Shown here: positions 32,901-49,850 of the stretch, one piece after another
Position numbering within the stretch: the stretch's first letter is position 1
Layout of the letters: each line of letters opens with the position of its first letter
Assembly: GCA_036229005.1 (NCBI GenBank)
Contig: JAZAMN010000004.1
Span: 96,001 to 160,000, forward strand
DNA length: 64,000 nucleotides
Reading direction: 5' to 3'
Source: Myxococcota bacterium
GTDB lineage: Bacteria; Myxococcota_A; UBA796; CAJQPC01
The notes under the pieces: model-generated
The model's input: the letters and a program-made list of their open reading frames with translations, nothing else
What the model was told of the DNA's origin: nothing
Database searches by the model: none
Program-made: the position numbers and the translations under genes

Positions 32901-34247
32901 TCAGTCCCGGCGGCGCCGGATCTCGACCACCGTGGGGGTGGAGGCCTTGTTGCGGGGCTTGCGCCTCCGGCGCTGCTTGGGTGGGCTGCTGTTGTCCTCG
33001 CTGGCGCTGCGGGGCTTGCGGGTGCTCTGGCGGGGTTTGGATGCCGAGGCGGTGGGCCCCGAAGTGTCCGGACGGCCACCGCTCCGCTTCTTCCGCCGAC
33101 CCTCGCTGGTGCGTTCATTGCGCCCCTGATTGGGGCTGTCGCTGCGCCGGTCGTCGTGGGTGTCGTTGCCGCGCCGCTTGCGCTGCTGACCCTGGGACTG
33201 GGCGGCCTGATCCTCGGAGCGGGGGCCCCGACGCTTGCGATTTCGGCTGCGCTTGTTGTTGTCGCCCTGGCGCTCGGAGCGGGGCTTGGCGTCGCCGCCA
33301 GAGCTGTCTTTGCCGGGGGCGGACTTCTGCTGGCTGCGCTTGTCGCTGCGGCGCTTGAAGCGGGCCACCTGGGCCTGACGCTCGCGCTCGTCATCGTCGG
33401 GCTCTTCGAGGCCCAGAGCGACGCGGCGCTGGAAGTCGGCGCGGGCGGCCGCCGCGATCTCGTCGAGCACGGACTGGACGTTGGCCTTGTGGTCGCTGCC
33501 GCGGAACTTGCCGGTGAGCTCGGTGTACGGGGTGAGGTCGTTCTTCTCGTAGAGGTCCCACATCTCTTCGGCGTAGCGGGTCTTGCGCAGGCGCGGCTCC
33601 CAGCGGGAGAGGAAGAGGGTGAGGTTCTTGACGTCCCGGATCAGCAGCTTCTTGGCGTTCCGGTTGTGGGCCGGGTCCACCGCCTGGGGGAAGTCGATGA
33701 TGACGGGCTCTTCGGGGCTGAGCAGGACGTTGAAGTCCGAGAGGTCCCCGTGCACCACGCCAGCGCAGAGCATGCGCTGCACATCCTTGAGCAGGATGTG
33801 GAAGAGCTCGCGGGCCTGCTTCTTGGAGAGCTCCACGTCGCAGAGTCGCGGCGCGGGGCCACCATCGGCGCCCTTGATGAGCTCCATGATGAGCACGCCC
33901 TCCACAAAGTCGTAGGGCTCGGGGACGCGCACGCCGGCGGCGTTCAGGCGGTAGATGGTGTCGACCTCGGCGTTGCGCCAGGCCTCCTCCTCCTGCTCGC
34001 GGCCGAACCTGGAGCGCCGGCTCATGGCCCGTTGGCTGCGGGTGTTCCGAGTCTTTCGGCCCTCGGTGTATTCAGCCCGGTGTTTGAAGCTGCGGTGGTT
34101 GGCGCTCTTGTAGAGCTTGGCCACGCGCAGCTCATCGTCGGAGACGACCAGGTAGACCTCGGCCTCTTTGCCGGCCATCAGGGGGCGGACCACCTCTTGG
34201 ATGGCTCCCTGGTCCAGCAGCAGCCCGAGCCGCTCATTTGCCCGCAT
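32901..34247 (-). CDS. RIO1-family protein kinase (PA4780-like) with long basic C-terminal tail
   Basis: LMAGKEAEVY, VAKLYK, VVHGDLSDFNVL, IIDFPQAVD. Confidence 0.9.
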   Translation of the reverse strand: MRANERLGLLLDQGAIQEVVRPLMAGKEAEVYLVVSDDELRVAKLYKSANHRSFKHRAEYTEGRKTRNTRSQRAMSRRSRFGREQEEEAWRNAEVDTIYRLNAAGVRVPEPYDFVEGVLIMELIKGADGGPAPRLCDVELSKKQARELFHILLKDVQRMLCAGVVHGDLSDFNVLLSPEEPVIIDFPQAVDPAHNRNAKKLLIRDVKNLTLFLSRWEPRLRKTRYAEEMWDLYEKNDLTPYTELTGKFRGSDHKANVQSVLDEIAAAARADFQRRVALGLEEPDDDERERQAQVARFKRRSDKRSQQKSAPGKDSSGGDAKPRSERQGDNNKRSRNRKRRGPRSEDQAAQSQGQQRKRRGNDTHDDRRSDSPNQGRNERTSEGRRKKRSGGRPDTSGPTASASKPRQSTRKPRSASEDNSSPPKQRRRRKPRNKASTPTVVEIRRRRD

Positions 34248-37054: not shown

Positions 37055-37434
37055 GCGCCGACTCCGACTGTGCGCTGCGGCTGATGGAGGTGGTGGTCCC
37101 CTGCGTCCGCTACCGCAGCACCCGCTTCTTCTACGAGCACGTGTTGGGGCTGGAGCCCGCCAGCGAGGGCCGGAACCACGTGTTCTTTGCCTGCGGCGGC
37201 GCCCAGCTCGCCCTGGTCAACGCCTCCGGGGGAGACCCCATGGTCAAGCCTAGCGGCCACGGGATCTACCTGGACCTTGAGGCCCGGGACCTGCAGAGCC
37301 TCAAGCGGCGCTGTCAGCGGGAGGGCATCCAGCTCCTGGATGAGCGCCGGGACGAGCACGGTCGGGCCATCACGCTGCGGGACCCGGAGGGCAACCTGCT
37401 CAACGTCTTCCAGGCCGGCACGGTGGGCGCGTGA
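37051..37434 (+). CDS. VOC/glyoxalase-family protein
   Basis: FFYEHVLGL, LRDPEGNLL. Confidence 0.85.
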   Translation: MSADSDCALRLMEVVVPCVRYRSTRFFYEHVLGLEPASEGRNHVFFACGGAQLALVNASGGDPMVKPSGHGIYLDLEARDLQSLKRRCQREGIQLLDERRDEHGRAITLRDPEGNLLNVFQAGTVGA

Positions 37435-37844
37435 GCTCCCTGGCGCTGGCCCTGGTCCTCTCGGGTCTGTCCCGGGCGGACACCGGCCTGGCCCCGGACC
37501 CGCCCACCGACCCGCTGCCCATCCACGGTGAGGACAGCGACGACGACGGCTGGATCGACGACGTCGACTGCAACCCCCTGAACGCCTCGATCTACCCAGG
37601 CGCGCCCGAGGTCTGCAACGGCCACGACTCCGACTGCAACGGCTTGGTCGACGACATCGACGAGGTCTGCGGGGACCGCTCCGACAACGACTGCGACGCC
37701 CAGGTCGACGAGGGCTGCGGGCTCTGCAACGCGCCGCCAGACACCGGGCTGCAGTCCGGAGTTGGCTGGATCTTCGCCGTGCTGCTGATCTCCGGCGCAT
37801 TGAGCCGCCGTTCGGTGGCTCGCCGCGGGCCGCCGCTATACTGA
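37431..37844 (+). CDS. Putative metal-binding-motif (MopE-like) surface protein with C-terminal anchor
   Basis: DSDDDG..DCN...IYPGAPEVCNGHDSDCNG.VDD; TM followed by RR tail. Confidence 0.75.
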   Translation: MSSLALALVLSGLSRADTGLAPDPPTDPLPIHGEDSDDDGWIDDVDCNPLNASIYPGAPEVCNGHDSDCNGLVDDIDEVCGDRSDNDCDAQVDEGCGLCNAPPDTGLQSGVGWIFAVLLISGALSRRSVARRGPPLY

Positions 37845-40398: not shown

Positions 40399-41229
40399 GT
40401 GCCGCTCCAGGCCACCCTGGCCGAGCCCGTCGACATCGAGGGCGTGGGCCTCCACTCCGGCCAGCCCGCGCGCCTGCGCCTGCTCCCTGCCCCGGCCGGA
40501 CACGGGCGCCGCTTCCAGCGCATGGATCTCCCCGGCCAGCCCGAGATCCCCGCCCACATCGACCAGGTGCGAGACACCTTCCTGGCCACCACCCTCGGCC
40601 AGGGCCCGGCCAGCGTCTCCACCGTCGAACACCTGCTGGCCGCCTGCGTCATCTGCGGCGTGGACAACCTCCAGGTCCAGGTCTGGGGGAGCGAGCTGCC
40701 GGTGCTGGACGGGAGCGCGGCTCCCTTCATGGACAGGTTCACCTCGCTGACACCCCAGAGTGCTGCGCCGGTGTTGGAGATCCTGGCCCCCGTCGAGGTG
40801 CGGCTGGATGCGCGCGCGGCCCGGATCCTCCCCTCCCCGGAGCTGCGCCTGGAGCTGGCGATCGACTTTGAGCACCCCGCCATCGGCCGGCAGTCCCTGA
40901 GCCTGGGGCCTCAAGACTTCGCGTCGGTGGCGACGGCCCGCACCTTTGGGTTCGCGGAGCAGATCCAGGCGCTGCATCAGGCCGGCAGGGCGCTGGGGGG
41001 CAGCCTGGACAACGCGCTGGTCTTTGACGCCGCTGGACCGGTCAACGCGCCGCGCATGGCCGATGAGCCGGTGCGCCACAAGGCCTTGGATCTGCTGGGG
41101 GATCTCGCCTTGGTGGGCGCGCGCCTGCAGGGGAGGGTGGTGACCGAGCGGCCGGGGCACGCGCTGACGCAGGCGCTGCTGACCGAGCTGATGCGGCGGC
41201 CGGAGTGCTGGCGGCTCAACACGCCCTGA
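40399..41229 (+). CDS. lpxC: UDP-3-O-acyl-GlcNAc deacetylase
   Basis: GVGLHSG, STVEHLLAA, ELPVLDGSA, ARTFGF, GGSLDNA, RHKALDLLGDL, GH. Confidence 0.95.
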   Translation: MPLQATLAEPVDIEGVGLHSGQPARLRLLPAPAGHGRRFQRMDLPGQPEIPAHIDQVRDTFLATTLGQGPASVSTVEHLLAACVICGVDNLQVQVWGSELPVLDGSAAPFMDRFTSLTPQSAAPVLEILAPVEVRLDARAARILPSPELRLELAIDFEHPAIGRQSLSLGPQDFASVATARTFGFAEQIQALHQAGRALGGSLDNALVFDAAGPVNAPRMADEPVRHKALDLLGDLALVGARLQGRVVTERPGHALTQALLTELMRRPECWRLNTP

Positions 41230-41275: not shown

Positions 41276-41319
41276 AAAAGAAGAAACCCGCCGTCCCATG
41301 ATTGGGCTGGCGGGCTCTT
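41276..41319 (-). terminator. Intrinsic terminator downstream of the small ORF
   Basis: Minus strand CCCGCC-AGCCCA..TGGGAC-GGCGGG hairpin followed by TTTCTTCTTTT. Confidence 0.75.
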
Positions 41320-41343
41320 GCAAAGGTTGAAAACGGCTCAGCC

Positions 41344-41391
41344 CTACTTCTTGGGACCGGGCTTGGGGCGGGGGGAAGGACGCCACTTCAT
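41344..41391 (-). CDS. Putative 15-aa Pro/Lys/Arg-rich small peptide MKWRPSPRPKPGPKK
   Basis: GGAGG RBS 5 nt before ATG, own promoter and terminator; below the ORF-track cutoff. Confidence 0.6.
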   Translation of the reverse strand: MKWRPSPRPKPGPKK

Positions 41392-41439
41392 GATTGCCTC
41401 CAGAGCGATAGGTTCCCTGGGCTGGCCCAGGCATCGTCA

Positions 41440-41468
41440 AGATTGCTCGTTTCCTCCGGTCGTGTCAA
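41440..41468 (-). promoter_or_regulatory. Sigma70-type promoter for the small-ORF transcript
   Basis: TTGACA (41468-41463), 17-nt spacer, CAATCT (41445-41440). Confidence 0.65.
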
Positions 41469-41494: not shown

Positions 41495-42430
41495 TTGGCC
41501 CTCGCCGATGCCTGGATCCCCGGTGGAGACACCCCCGCCCTGCCCAAGGGCCCCCCCTACGCCGCCACCGAGCTCACGGAGTGGGCGGGCGCGGCCTTCG
41601 AGATGCCGCCTGGAGACCCGATCCTCGCGGACATCCACGTCGGCGGGCCGGCGCCAGAGGGGCCGCTGTGCAACCTGGTCGGGCTGGTGAAGGCCTGGGA
41701 CGACCACCCCGAGTGGCTGGACTTCCTGGACCCCAGCGCCCCCAGCCACGTCCAGAAGATGCTGGAGCGGGGGATCTACGAGCACCACTGGGGCGAGCTG
41801 CTGCCCGAACGCGGGCGCGTGCTGGATCTGGGCGGGGGCTGCGGTCGCTTCGCCGCCTGGCTGCTGGACCGGGGCCTGGACGTCGAGGTCGTGGATCCCG
41901 ATCTGCGCTCGCTGTGGCGCTGTCTGCAGCACGCCGCGGGCCGCCCGGGGCGCGTGGATCTCCACTGGAGCACCGGCGAGCACCTGCCCGATCTGGCGCC
42001 CGTCGACGCGGTGATCATGCCGGAGGTCCTCAACTATGTGAGCGACCCCGATCGCATCCTGGACGGCGTGGCGCGCATCCTCAAGCCAGGGGGCAAGCTC
42101 TTTGTCTCGGTGGAGGCGCGCTGGGGCTGGGCCGCCGCCCTGGATGTGCCGCCCGGGACCCTGCAGGCGCTGCTGGAGGACGGAGAGGTCCACAAGCCCG
42201 GGGACGTCTGGGTCCACACCTACGAGGGCGATGAGCTGCGCGAGCTCCTCTCCAATCACTTTGCCGTCGAGGTGCTGCTGCCCACGCACTACATCCCCTC
42301 GGGTCCCTTCGAGCTGGCCGCCGGAGAGGTGGACCTGCCGGAGGTGCTGGAGCTGGAGGCCCAGCTTCGGGAGCACCCCCGGACCGCGCACCTCAATCGC
42401 GCCTGGATGGCCGTCGCGACCCGCAAGTAG
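41495..42430 (+). CDS. Class I SAM-dependent methyltransferase
   Basis: VLDLGGGCGRF, ILKPGG; TTG start after AGGAG. Confidence 0.8.
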   Translation: MALADAWIPGGDTPALPKGPPYAATELTEWAGAAFEMPPGDPILADIHVGGPAPEGPLCNLVGLVKAWDDHPEWLDFLDPSAPSHVQKMLERGIYEHHWGELLPERGRVLDLGGGCGRFAAWLLDRGLDVEVVDPDLRSLWRCLQHAAGRPGRVDLHWSTGEHLPDLAPVDAVIMPEVLNYVSDPDRILDGVARILKPGGKLFVSVEARWGWAAALDVPPGTLQALLEDGEVHKPGDVWVHTYEGDELRELLSNHFAVEVLLPTHYIPSGPFELAAGEVDLPEVLELEAQLREHPRTAHLNRAWMAVATRK

Positions 42431-42507: not shown

Positions 42508-44049
42508 ATGCGGGTGATGCTCGTCCAGCCGCCGCGCCGCTACTGGCCCTACACCTCGGAAGGGGACAACTTCCTGCTCCAGCAGGCGCTCCCCGCGCTG
42601 GCCGCCGTGGCCATCGAGGAGGGACACGAGGTCGAGGTGGTCGACTGCATGCCGGCCCACATCGGCTGGCGCAGCCTCCACGACAAGGTCCGGGACTTCA
42701 AGCCCCACGTCATCGGCTGCGGTGAGAACCACGCGCTCTACTCCAAGGAGGCCATGCGCTTCTTCCGGCTGTGTCGGGAGGCGGCCCCCGAGGCCGTGAC
42801 CGTCGCGGGCGGTGGCCACTTCACCAACCTGGCTGAGCGCTACGCTGCGCACCCCGACATCGACCTGATCGTCGTGGGCGAGGGCGAGCTCACCTTCGCC
42901 CAGGTCCTGCGCGAGATCGACGGCGGCCGGCACCCCAACGACGGGGACTGGGACGACGTCGACGGCATCGCCTTCGGGCGCGACGGCGGGGCCGTGAAGA
43001 CCAAGCCCGCCCGCCTGGTCAAGCACCTGGATGACCTGCCCATCCCGGCCTACGACCGCATGCCCATGCACCTGTATGGGACCAGCCGCTACCTGTTCTC
43101 GCCCGGCGGCAGCACCCTGCACCACTCCCGCGGCTGCGTGTCCAAGTGCAGCTTCTGCGCCTGGTGGACCACCATGGCCGACCGCCGGGTGGACAAGGAC
43201 GGCAACGAGCGCCTCAGCCCCCGCTGGCGCTCCAAGTCGGCCGACCGCATGATGGAGGAGGTCGAGCTCCTCTACTACAAGTTCGGCAAGCGCAGCTTTG
43301 TCTGGGTGGACGAGAGCTGGAACATCGACCCCCGCTTCAACCACGAGTTCAGCACCAAGATGCTGGAGTCGGGCATGAAGACCAAGTGGATGACCTTCAT
43401 GCGCGCCGACTGCATCGTGCGCGACCACGAGAAGGGCATCCTGGAGGAGCAGGTCCGGGCCGGCCTCTCCCACATCCTGATCGGCGTCGAGCGGGCCGAA
43501 GACGACAACCTCACCGAGCTCGACAAGCGCTTCTACACCGGCGGCATCGCCGAGCGCGCCATCGCCATCTTCAAGGAGCACTACCCGGAGGTCTTCATCC
43601 AGGCGACCTTCATCGTGGGCGTGAAGAACGAGAACCAGGAGAGCCTCAAGCGCCAGGTCGAGCTCGCCCAGCGCCTGGACGTGGACTTCCCGGCCTTCCA
43701 CCCCATCACCCCGGTCCCCGGGACGCCCATCTTCGATGACGCGCTCAAGAACGGGCACATCACGATGGACGACTTCGACGACTTCGACTGGCTGTCTCCG
43801 GTGCTGGACACCGACTACATGACCCGCCACGAGATCGCCGAAGAGATCTACAAGATGAACAAGAAGTTCGTGAACCCCAAGTGGATCCTGCGAGGCCTGA
43901 CCTCAAAGGTCGACTACAAGCGGGACATGTACATCTGGTTCGCCAAGGTCTCCGCGATGATGGCCGCCGGCACCATCAAGGAGAAGCTCAACCCCTTTGA
44001 TGTGGGCCACTACCAGGCGCTGGTCAAGCCGCACTGGTACGACGGCTGA
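42508..44049 (+). CDS. Cobalamin-binding radical SAM enzyme (class B-type)
   Basis: N-terminal B12 domain (VAGGGHFT, IVVGEGELTF); SRGCVSKCSFC; IGVE; ITPVPGTPIF. Confidence 0.9.
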   Translation: MRVMLVQPPRRYWPYTSEGDNFLLQQALPALAAVAIEEGHEVEVVDCMPAHIGWRSLHDKVRDFKPHVIGCGENHALYSKEAMRFFRLCREAAPEAVTVAGGGHFTNLAERYAAHPDIDLIVVGEGELTFAQVLREIDGGRHPNDGDWDDVDGIAFGRDGGAVKTKPARLVKHLDDLPIPAYDRMPMHLYGTSRYLFSPGGSTLHHSRGCVSKCSFCAWWTTMADRRVDKDGNERLSPRWRSKSADRMMEEVELLYYKFGKRSFVWVDESWNIDPRFNHEFSTKMLESGMKTKWMTFMRADCIVRDHEKGILEEQVRAGLSHILIGVERAEDDNLTELDKRFYTGGIAERAIAIFKEHYPEVFIQATFIVGVKNENQESLKRQVELAQRLDVDFPAFHPITPVPGTPIFDDALKNGHITMDDFDDFDWLSPVLDTDYMTRHEIAEEIYKMNKKFVNPKWILRGLTSKVDYKRDMYIWFAKVSAMMAAGTIKEKLNPFDVGHYQALVKPHWYDG

Positions 44050-48711: not shown

Positions 48712-48770
48712 TTGCGCTCCTGTGGGTTGTGCACCCGCTCAGGCTAACCTGTGGCCCAGCGGATGGCCCC

Positions 48771-49850
48771 ATGGACCGACTCCCCCAGCACATGGGGGTG
48801 CTGCAGATCGAACTCACCGATCTCTGCAACCTGAGCTGCAGCATGTGTGCCCCTCACCACGAGGGGTGGGCCACCGTGCACGGGATCCCGAAAGGCAAGA
48901 TGGACTTCGCCGTCTACGAGGCGATCGTGGGGCGTCTGGCCGCCGAGGACTGTCGCTTCGACCACATCATCTTCCAGTGGCTGGGGGATCCCTCGCTGCA
49001 CAGCCGGCTGGAGGACATGCTGGCCCTGGCCCAGGAGCGGCTGGGGGACCGGGTGGGCTACCTGCGGGTGGACACCAACGCCATCACCCTGACGCCCGCC
49101 CGGATGGATCGGCTGGTGGAGCTCTACGCCCGGCACCCCCAGGTCCCGCTGCTGCTGGTGTTCACCCTGGACGCGGCGACGCCGGAGACCTACCGCCGCG
49201 TGAAGGGGCAGGATGCGCTGGAGCGGGTGCGCCGCAACGTCCGCCGCCTCCTGATGCAGCGCGCCCGCCTGGACCTTGAGGACGTGCGCCTGAACGTGGA
49301 GCTGCAGTTCGTCCTGCAGGAGGGGAACGCCCATGAGCTGGGGCAGTTCGTCCGCTACTGGGAGCGCACGCTGGCTTGCTACGGGGGCAAGGGGCACAGC
49401 GATCTGATGATCAAGCGCCTGTCGGTGGGGGCAGGGGGTGCGGGGCAGCAGGCCGCCGACGCGCTCTATCAGCGCCGGGTGGCCGAAGAGGGGCTCCGAG
49501 CCTTCCGCTCCGACCACCTGGAGCTCAAGCTCTGGGAGTCCTCCCCCTGGGAGAAGGCGGAGCCGGGCCCCCGGCAGGCCTGTCCGGGGCTCTGGCTCAC
49601 GCCGGTGATCCGCCACGACGGGCACCTGTTGATGTGCTGCGCCGACCTGTCCTCGCAGATGGACCTGGGGCCGGTACACGAGTCCGGGTTCCGCGCTCTC
49701 TGGGAAGGTGAGCAAGCCGATGGATACCGGACAGCGCACCTCCAAGGCCGCTTCGAGGAGCTTGAGGCCTGCCGCGACTGTGGCGGAATTCAGTGGTATG
49801 ACCTGCCCATGACCCTTGTGGACGCGACCCTGGAGCGGACGGGAGCCTGA
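48771..49850 (+). CDS. Radical SAM protein with SPASM/twitch domain
   Basis: ELTDLCNLSCSMC, WLGDPSLH, DTN; C-terminal CPGLW..DG..MCCAD..CRDC. Confidence 0.9.
   Translation: MDRLPQHMGVLQIELTDLCNLSCSMCAPHHEGWATVHGIPKGKMDFAVYEAIVGRLAAEDCRFDHIIFQWLGDPSLHSRLEDMLALAQERLGDRVGYLRVDTNAITLTPARMDRLVELYARHPQVPLLLVFTLDAATPETYRRVKGQDALERVRRNVRRLLMQRARLDLEDVRLNVELQFVLQEGNAHELGQFVRYWERTLACYGGKGHSDLMIKRLSVGAGGAGQQAADALYQRRVAEEGLRAFRSDHLELKLWESSPWEKAEPGPRQACPGLWLTPVIRHDGHLLMCCADLSSQMDLGPVHESGFRALWEGEQADGYRTAHLQGRFEELEACRDCGGIQWYDLPMTLVDATLERTGA

Follow-up and report, generated by a model that had tools for sequence, protein, structure and literature searches.

A proline-rich micropeptide gene coupled to two B12-binding radical SAM enzymes and a methyltransferase in Myxococcota

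Comparative analysis of a 64,000-nucleotide stretch of DNA from a Myxococcota bacterium (contig JAZAMN010000004.1, positions 96,001 to 160,000; hereafter the window) confirmed, at the level of sequence, a real small-protein gene under protein-level purifying selection, with a predicted sigma70-type promoter and a strong ribosome-binding site (RBS). The gene encodes a 15-residue peptide, and comparison of relatives showed, within the sequenced genomes, that it is coupled genomically and phylogenetically to two B12-binding radical SAM enzymes (rSAM-A and rSAM-B) and, less strictly, to a class I SAM-dependent methyltransferase (MT). We consider it probable, from gene context and enzyme class, that the peptide is a leaderless precursor that would be C-methylated by A and B and N- or O-methylated by MT. 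The system is apparently undescribed so far; our literature searches, with most subscription journals outside their coverage, found no description of the motif or of the enzyme combination.

The peptide gene, its family and its expression signals

The sequence-only reading of the window had proposed a stand-alone transcription unit here, and the promoter, hairpin, RBS, ORF and terminator-like parts were all located on the minus strand as it had described them. These features and the enzyme genes discussed below are as follows.

41468-41463, minus strand: -35 box TTGACA (sequence; conserved in homologues)
41445-41440, minus strand: -10 box CAATCT, 17-nt spacer from the -35 box (A2 and T6 conserved in homologues)
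41431-41416, minus strand: 5' UTR hairpin CCTGGG/CCCAGG, -11.3 kcal/mol; local, not family-wide
41401-41397, minus strand: RBS GGAGG, 5 nt ahead of the ATG (sequence; GGAG in homologues)
41391-41344, minus strand: 15-aa peptide gene with an ATG start, MKWRPSPRPKPGPKK-TAG (sequence and homologues)
41276..41319, minus strand: intrinsic-terminator-like element, a GC hairpin (41314-41287) with a U-tract (41286-41276)
40399..41229, plus strand: lpxC, given for context only
41495..42430, plus strand: MT, 311 aa, TTG start (Pfam, fold model, adjacency)
42508..44049, plus strand: rSAM-A, a B12-binding radical SAM protein of 513 aa with CxxxCxxC (Pfam, alignment, model)
G000:C4:33975-35384 (L420:3976-5385), minus strand, outside the window: rSAM-B, a B12 radical SAM protein encoded on the same contig as the peptide

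The -10 box agrees with TATAAT at A2 and T6 only, and a simple consensus scan of the window called neither the peptide promoter nor the downstream terminator. Sites of the form TTGACA-17-nAnnnT number only 28 in the whole 6.4-Mb genome, and TTGAC was found 30-100 nt upstream of the gene in 92 of 94 distinct homologous copies versus 4.5% of random windows, which bears out the earlier claim that the signals exceed chance. The terminator-like element gave -23.6 kcal/mol for a 50-nt stretch. The gene is single-copy in a host genome of 70% GC; blastn found no paralogues there, and among that genome's 956 short RBS-led ORFs the 28 others rich in proline and basic residues all lacked the motif.

A 601-nt query found matches in 20 of 41 genomes; with growing distance, conservation was confined to an island made up of the RBS and ORF. 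In 16 relatives the translation read M-x-WRPSPRP(K/Q)P.... An exact codon pattern matched 81 of the 154 genomes of the host order, versus 11 for a reversed control. The 70 loci that we inspected, from 69 of those 81 genomes, comprised 67 ATG-started ORFs of 14-41 aa, one without an ATG and two chance matches; looser pattern searches brought in further variants. The family core is W-R-P-[SAT]-P-x-P-x-P. The W, R and P were invariant in all 94 distinct copies, an invariance that is partly built in because the copies were picked by motif. The synonymous excess and the promoter conservation are not a product of that selection. Codon entropy across the 94 copies was 1.39 bits at the third position versus 0.31 and 0.23 at the other positions, and pairwise comparison of differing codons gave 18231 synonymous versus 3775 replacement differences, in pairs that are not independent. 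This is the synonymous-biased conservation in relatives that had been proposed as a check on coding, and together with the conserved promoter and RBS it strongly supports a coding transcription unit. One copy (L051, genome G033) lacks an in-frame ATG and has a Leu codon at the start position, representing either a non-ATG start or an assembly error.

In eleven copies, each of 41 aa, a 13-residue unit is triplicated, and a further copy is a duplication; repeat units within one gene showed 131 synonymous versus 2 replacement differences. The W is preceded by 1-9 variable residues and the tails are short and variable, and an architecture of leader (or follower) plus core was not found in the peptide. 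At the 17-nt spacing the -10 box kept A2 in 81 and T6 in 86 of 92 copies, and GGAG was present ahead of the start in 82 of 94. Downstream hairpins were enriched (mean z -2.1), with a U-rich tail in 47 of 94 copies. Conservation of the 5' hairpin was not found, a hairpin of any kind at or below -5 kcal/mol occurring in 32 of 92 UTRs. The CGT share of Arg codons was 0.44 in the peptide, 0.30 in its own ribosomal-protein-operon genes and 0.06 genome-wide, a comparison weakened by start-proximal codons and by pooling across genomes; this codon use hints at high peptide expression. Contigs assembled from two RNA runs covered parts of rSAM-A, with 0 and 4-15 differences per piece. The peptide gene lies outside their coverage, and since such contigs drop short transcripts they are uninformative about it either way.

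The system escapes gene callers and RiPP mining because the 15-aa form falls under the usual ORF cut-offs. NCBIfam models assigned the 41-aa and 23-aa forms to 0 families, the ESM Atlas gave a best score of 0.77 and no family, and a 41-aa query against 5.8 billion called proteins returned only one relative, of 29 aa. A weak search for the motif fused to larger proteins found none at E 0.01. Among 65 matches to longer repeat forms in metagenomes, seven were the triplicated form, every one beside MT, and the rest were chance-like or out of frame. The 46 pattern matches in viral contigs included none with both an RBS and an upstream TTGAC, and there is therefore no sign of phage carriage.

Gene neighborhood and co-inheritance

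Among 110 peptide copies, a few of which may be one genome present in two collections, 88 lay within 500 nt of MT, rSAM-A or rSAM-B, one lay farther away and 21 had none of the three in the fetched flanks. The description of the gene as stand-alone is thus apt for its own promoter and RBS but not for its function. By layout, 52 copies directly preceded MT, 25 were divergent from it and one was downstream of it; five directly preceded rSAM-A without an intervening MT, and five directly followed rSAM-B. MT adjoined the peptide gene in 66 of the 67 loci of the order. The usual family layout is peptide, MT and rSAM-A in one direction; the divergence noted earlier is real in the window but represents an inversion common to the host family and not a general arrangement. 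The gene is flanked there by ruvC-ruvA-ruvB-DUF192-lpxC on one side and by MT and rSAM-A on the other. As lpxC was inside the fetched flanks in only 30 of 67 loci, a functional linkage to lpxC was rejected.

The linkage changes in form between lineages. Outside the host order, the peptide gene is directly upstream of rSAM-A with MT absent between them. In family f8, it is directly downstream of rSAM-B in 5 of 5 loci; MT and rSAM-A have mostly kept their place near ruvB/lpxC in f8 loci, and the peptide gene follows B to another contig. Compact cassettes were observed as peptide-MT-B-A (L288) and as peptide-A-B (L284, L224, L219, L223 and L217/L270). In family f2, the relocated peptide gene keeps its promoter and is itself sometimes doubled, and in the window genome rSAM-B lies 102 kb off on the same contig. 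Adjacency to some B12 radical SAM gene is easier by chance in these bacteria because their genomes hold ~23-30 B12-binding genes, often clustered. Both a ribosomally encoded precursor peptide gene and co-encoded or co-inherited tailoring enzymes, two hallmarks of RiPP systems, were found. Among the neighbors inspected at the loci, no exporter or protease was recognized.

Some variations were local. In those genomes of genus g15 that carry the triplicated peptide (L053-L061, L405-L410, L414), MT mostly lacks the first ~55 residues, and in many of them an unrelated gene of ~450 aa is inserted between MT and rSAM-A. At one locus (L149) the peptide gene is 6.5 kb from a gene for A', a paralogue of rSAM-A.

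The phylogenetic profile, in which kin genomes are not independent, showed a similar association. In the host order outside family f3, rSAM-A was present in 99 of 104 genomes and rSAM-B in 96 of 104. In f3, the peptide, rSAM-A and rSAM-B were each present in 0 of 49 genomes, and MT was kept in 38 of 49. Family f3 forms one clade in the MT tree, and its lack of the system is one loss amid a broad loss of B12 enzymes: hits to the B12-binding family PF02310 numbered 23-30 in genomes of other families (G000, G007, G031, G119, G022) versus 5-16 in f3 (G047, G063, G040, G062, G072). An HMM search for the peptide in five f3 genomes returned four matches, each of which was in a different frame or part of a larger ORF. 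One f3 locus (L183, genome G076) has a 25-aa ORF with an M-x-WRPVP start, an RBS and a TTGAC 46 nt upstream, without the x-P run, and is possibly a degenerate relative. The f3 MTs (L159-L178) share changes at 15 alignment columns that are conserved elsewhere (e.g., N60->Y, G114->C, E162->H, S269->D), which may represent a substrate shift or plain divergence. More generally, the number of B12 enzymes has undergone a large expansion in the host order, with 23-30 B12-binding hits in most families.

In a sample of 401 genomes from the phylum, 66 had an rSAM-A-like gene, four of them at 37-38% identity only. The peptide pattern matched in 54 genomes. In 46 of these the match was judged, from the matched strings, to be an in-frame gene, and all 46 were among the 66 rSAM-A-positive genomes. 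The eight matches that were dropped comprised one out-of-frame match in an rSAM-positive genome and seven in the 335 rSAM-A-negative genomes (four were out of frame, one contained a stop and two lay in a different reading frame of a real gene; the loci of four of these seven were checked). Other searches added 13 peptide-positive genomes, bringing the total to 59 of the 66. No peptide was found in G177, G231 and G399, which carry A' only, or in G039, G137, G359 and G472, which carry orthologous A and are incomplete MAGs (in G137, MT is at a contig end). In a blind test, five of five genomes picked by the peptide pattern alone, with the peptide gene not beside a radical SAM gene, carried rSAM-A at 46-50% identity and B-like genes at 33-38%. 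A scan of 22 of the 64 parts of GTDB gave 119 loci, of which 26 were judged members. These were mostly Myxococcota/Deltaproteobacteria MAGs, together with a UBP15-labelled bin, ADurb.Bin236 and entries with generic or implausible submitter labels; there was no cultured strain among them. The peptide is kept in many uncultured myxobacteria-like lineages, possibly as part of a housekeeping peptide-modification system.

The enzymes, the proposed modification and its alternatives

By Pfam, rSAM-A has B12-binding and Radical_SAM domains only, with no PqqD/RRE. Its cysteines C207, C211 and C214 are invariant in the alignment and form the CxxxCxxC motif, so that it has the N-terminal B12-binding domain and CxxxCxxC radical SAM domain of class B (cobalamin-dependent) radical SAM enzymes; the Cx7Cx2C motif of bottromycin and proteusin methylases is absent. 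The rSAM-A model (pLDDT 89) had as its nearest structures AprD4, CysS, MgmA, TsrM, OxsB and TokK, at 14-19% identity, and its best matches mix methylases and non-methylases. Scores against NCBIfam were far under cut-off (BchE 169 vs 481, HpnJ 101 vs 578, rSAM_ocin_1 75 vs 282, ApyD 71 vs 750), as were those of the B-type enzymes; for both A and B-type enzymes the best-scoring families were BchE and HpnJ, both non-methylating. The MT model shows a class I fold that is extended at the N-terminus, and its top matches were the tRNA methyltransferase CmoM and uncharacterized methyltransferases. MT has a net charge of -25, and MT, rSAM-A and rSAM-B are all acidic whereas the peptide is strongly basic. 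Across the order, identity was 57-90% for rSAM-A and 63-95% for rSAM-B versus 38-58% for LpxC.

The sequence-only reading had offered, as one idea, that the peptide is a substrate for modification. This idea gained strong genomic support and would now extend to a second B12 radical SAM enzyme encoded elsewhere. We hypothesize that the peptide gene is transcribed from its sigma70-type promoter, translated via its strong RBS and, judging from its ribosomal-protein-like codon use, made in large amounts. The peptide would then be the substrate of the co-inherited rSAM-A, rSAM-B and MT. Judging from the reactions of class B radical SAM enzymes, both A and B would C-methylate unactivated carbons within the W-R-P-x-P-x-P-x-P unit, the candidate sites being the Pro ring, Arg or Trp, and MT would add an N- or O-methyl group. 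The target is likely to be this unit and not the N-terminus, because 1-9 variable residues precede the W and the double and triple forms repeat the unit. The last step is the least certain: the methylated, polyproline-II-like cationic product may serve as an intracellular housekeeping factor, in full length or after trimming by peptidases of general function. Because no exporter or protease was seen at the loci and the enzymes are better conserved than LpxC, an intracellular core role for the product is likely, and it is the weakest step of the proposal.

A broader form of this proposal, which we put forward tentatively, is that the micropeptide is multiply C-methylated by two dedicated B12 radical SAM enzymes, and modified by MT, into a polyproline-type molecule for use inside the cell, and would represent a new RiPP class of core physiology and not of defense. 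Under the same tentative reading, the modified product might bind ribosomes or nucleic acids, or might be a new cofactor derived from a peptide, and the system would be conserved across the classes of the phylum and beyond.

The explanation that competes best, although we think it unlikely, is that the peptide assists or controls A, B and MT, whether as accessory subunit, activator or competitive regulator, the true substrate being a lipid, an envelope glycan, a cofactor or a tRNA. The same peptide-enzyme linkage data fit such a role, as does the position of the MT-rSAM-A module beside ruvCAB-DUF192-lpxC in many lineages. The top families (BchE and HpnJ) and top fold (AprD4) all have small-molecule substrates, MT persists without the peptide in f3, and a cationic peptide could suit three acidic enzymes. 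A'/B' paralogue pairs also exist without the peptide. No WRP peptide was found near A' paralogues (33-38% identity) at 17 of 17 loci, and from these loci and the A'-only genomes it follows that close relatives of A apparently function without it. However, because the peptide gene adjoins each of the three enzyme genes in one lineage or another, a single accessory peptide would need to work with all three, and we know of no precedent for this. The selected double and triple repeats of the unit and the separate strong promoter and terminator also suit a stoichiometric substrate better. As a separate observation, A'/B'-like B12 radical SAM genes were clustered together with no WRP peptide nearby at L451, L452, L453, L458 and L465.

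Less probable still is that the peptide remains unmodified and binds ribosomes or nucleic acids, in the manner of proline-rich exit-tunnel peptides (a likeness raised in the sequence-only reading) or of tiny lineage-specific ribosomal proteins, and that its link to the enzymes reflects inherited gene order only. It resembles animal proline-rich antimicrobial peptides in its cationic x-P periodicity with PRP, it is single-copy and vertically inherited with ribosomal-protein-like codon use, and its promoter is kept after the move away from the enzymes in f2. Such a protein would not be expected to be missing both from f3 and from every one of the 335 sampled genomes without rSAM-A, nor to stay beside A, B or MT through rearrangements and follow B to another contig in f8. 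The remaining explanation, a cis-acting leader or arrest peptide or a structured sRNA controlling MT-rSAM expression, would suit a Pro/Arg-rich peptide whose gene precedes a co-directional MT or A gene in 57 of 110 loci and often has a hairpin after it, but it is very improbable and largely refuted, as the peptide is fully conserved when inverted (25 loci, the window included), downstream of B (five) or relocated (21), its codons change in a synonymous-biased manner, and the UTR and 5' hairpin are not conserved. The dual-function sRNA suggested earlier fails with it: the 160-nt transcript folded no better than shuffled sequences (z -1.24), and the best Rfam covariance model, P37, gave 21 bits against a 50-bit cut-off (E 1.4), with none at its gathering score.

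Methylation of the peptide thus remains the reading that we prefer. It would give two orphan B12 radical SAM families of a large uncultured lineage a candidate substrate of 15 residues that is easily synthesized, with chemistry that is directly testable. If true, it would add a leaderless, probably intracellular peptide-modification system to those known, and peptide engineering may gain new ways to C-methylate Pro, Arg or Trp.

Comparison with known systems and other genes of the window

PqqA/PQQ and MftA/mycofactocin are vertically inherited peptide-derived factors. Like the system described here, they combine a tiny precursor gene and a radical SAM enzyme with a housekeeping-like distribution and extra copies of the precursor unit. 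They use SPASM radical SAM enzymes, an RRE or chaperone and dedicated proteases, whereas the peptide system has B12 enzymes and, by Pfam, no RRE in A. Apidaecin, drosocin and oncocin are short, cationic and PRP-containing, and tandem-repeat precursors occur among such peptides. These are secreted animal peptides, whereas the WRP peptide is bacterial, lacks a signal peptide and is associated with B12 enzymes. MgmA, Mmp10 and TsrM belong to the same enzyme class as rSAM-A, and MgmA and Mmp10 are protein Gln/Arg C-methylases; together with TsrM they show that enzymes of this class can methylate carbons of Trp, Arg and Gln. They share 11-17% identity with rSAM-A, and the substrates of these three are a large enzyme or free Trp and not a dedicated micropeptide. 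One published paper (PMC5682303) describes TsrM as a Trp C-methylase and also names PqqA/PQQ and MftA/mycofactocin.

According to the same paper (PMC5682303), bottromycin is methylated by B12 radical SAM enzymes at Val, Phe and Pro and polytheonamide at several residues, and many radical SAM enzymes act without a leader or RRE. The bottromycin pathway, with three such B12 enzymes (PMC5682303), resembles the present system in having a short ribosomal peptide, several B12 radical SAM enzymes and a class I methyltransferase, with Pro as a candidate target here. The bottromycin and Poy enzymes are given there as having Cx7Cx2C (PMC5682303), in contrast to the canonical CxxxCxxC of rSAM-A. The polytheonamide/proteusin enzymes PoyB and PoyC offer a further likeness, in that two B12 radical SAM enzymes are predicted in that source to methylate one peptide at repeated sites (PMC5682303). 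Unlike bottromycin, the peptide system has no follower, leader or compact antibiotic cluster, and its inheritance is vertical and near-universal in its lineages. Proteusin precursors carry a nitrile-hydratase-like leader. In contrast to polytheonamide, the precursor here is 14-41 aa without such a leader, and no epimerase or exporter was seen at the loci.

Three other genes of the window were observed during this work. Just upstream of ruvC, at 37431-37844 on the plus strand, is a gene for a protein of 137 aa whose N-terminus is signal-like, which has a putative metal-binding motif (PF11617) and whose C-terminus carries a hydrophobic segment. The minus-strand gene at 32901-34247 encodes a RIO1-type kinase; its C-terminal tail is long, very basic and of low complexity. 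A radical SAM/SPASM protein, scoring under all NCBIfam cut-offs, is encoded at 48729-49850 on the plus strand.
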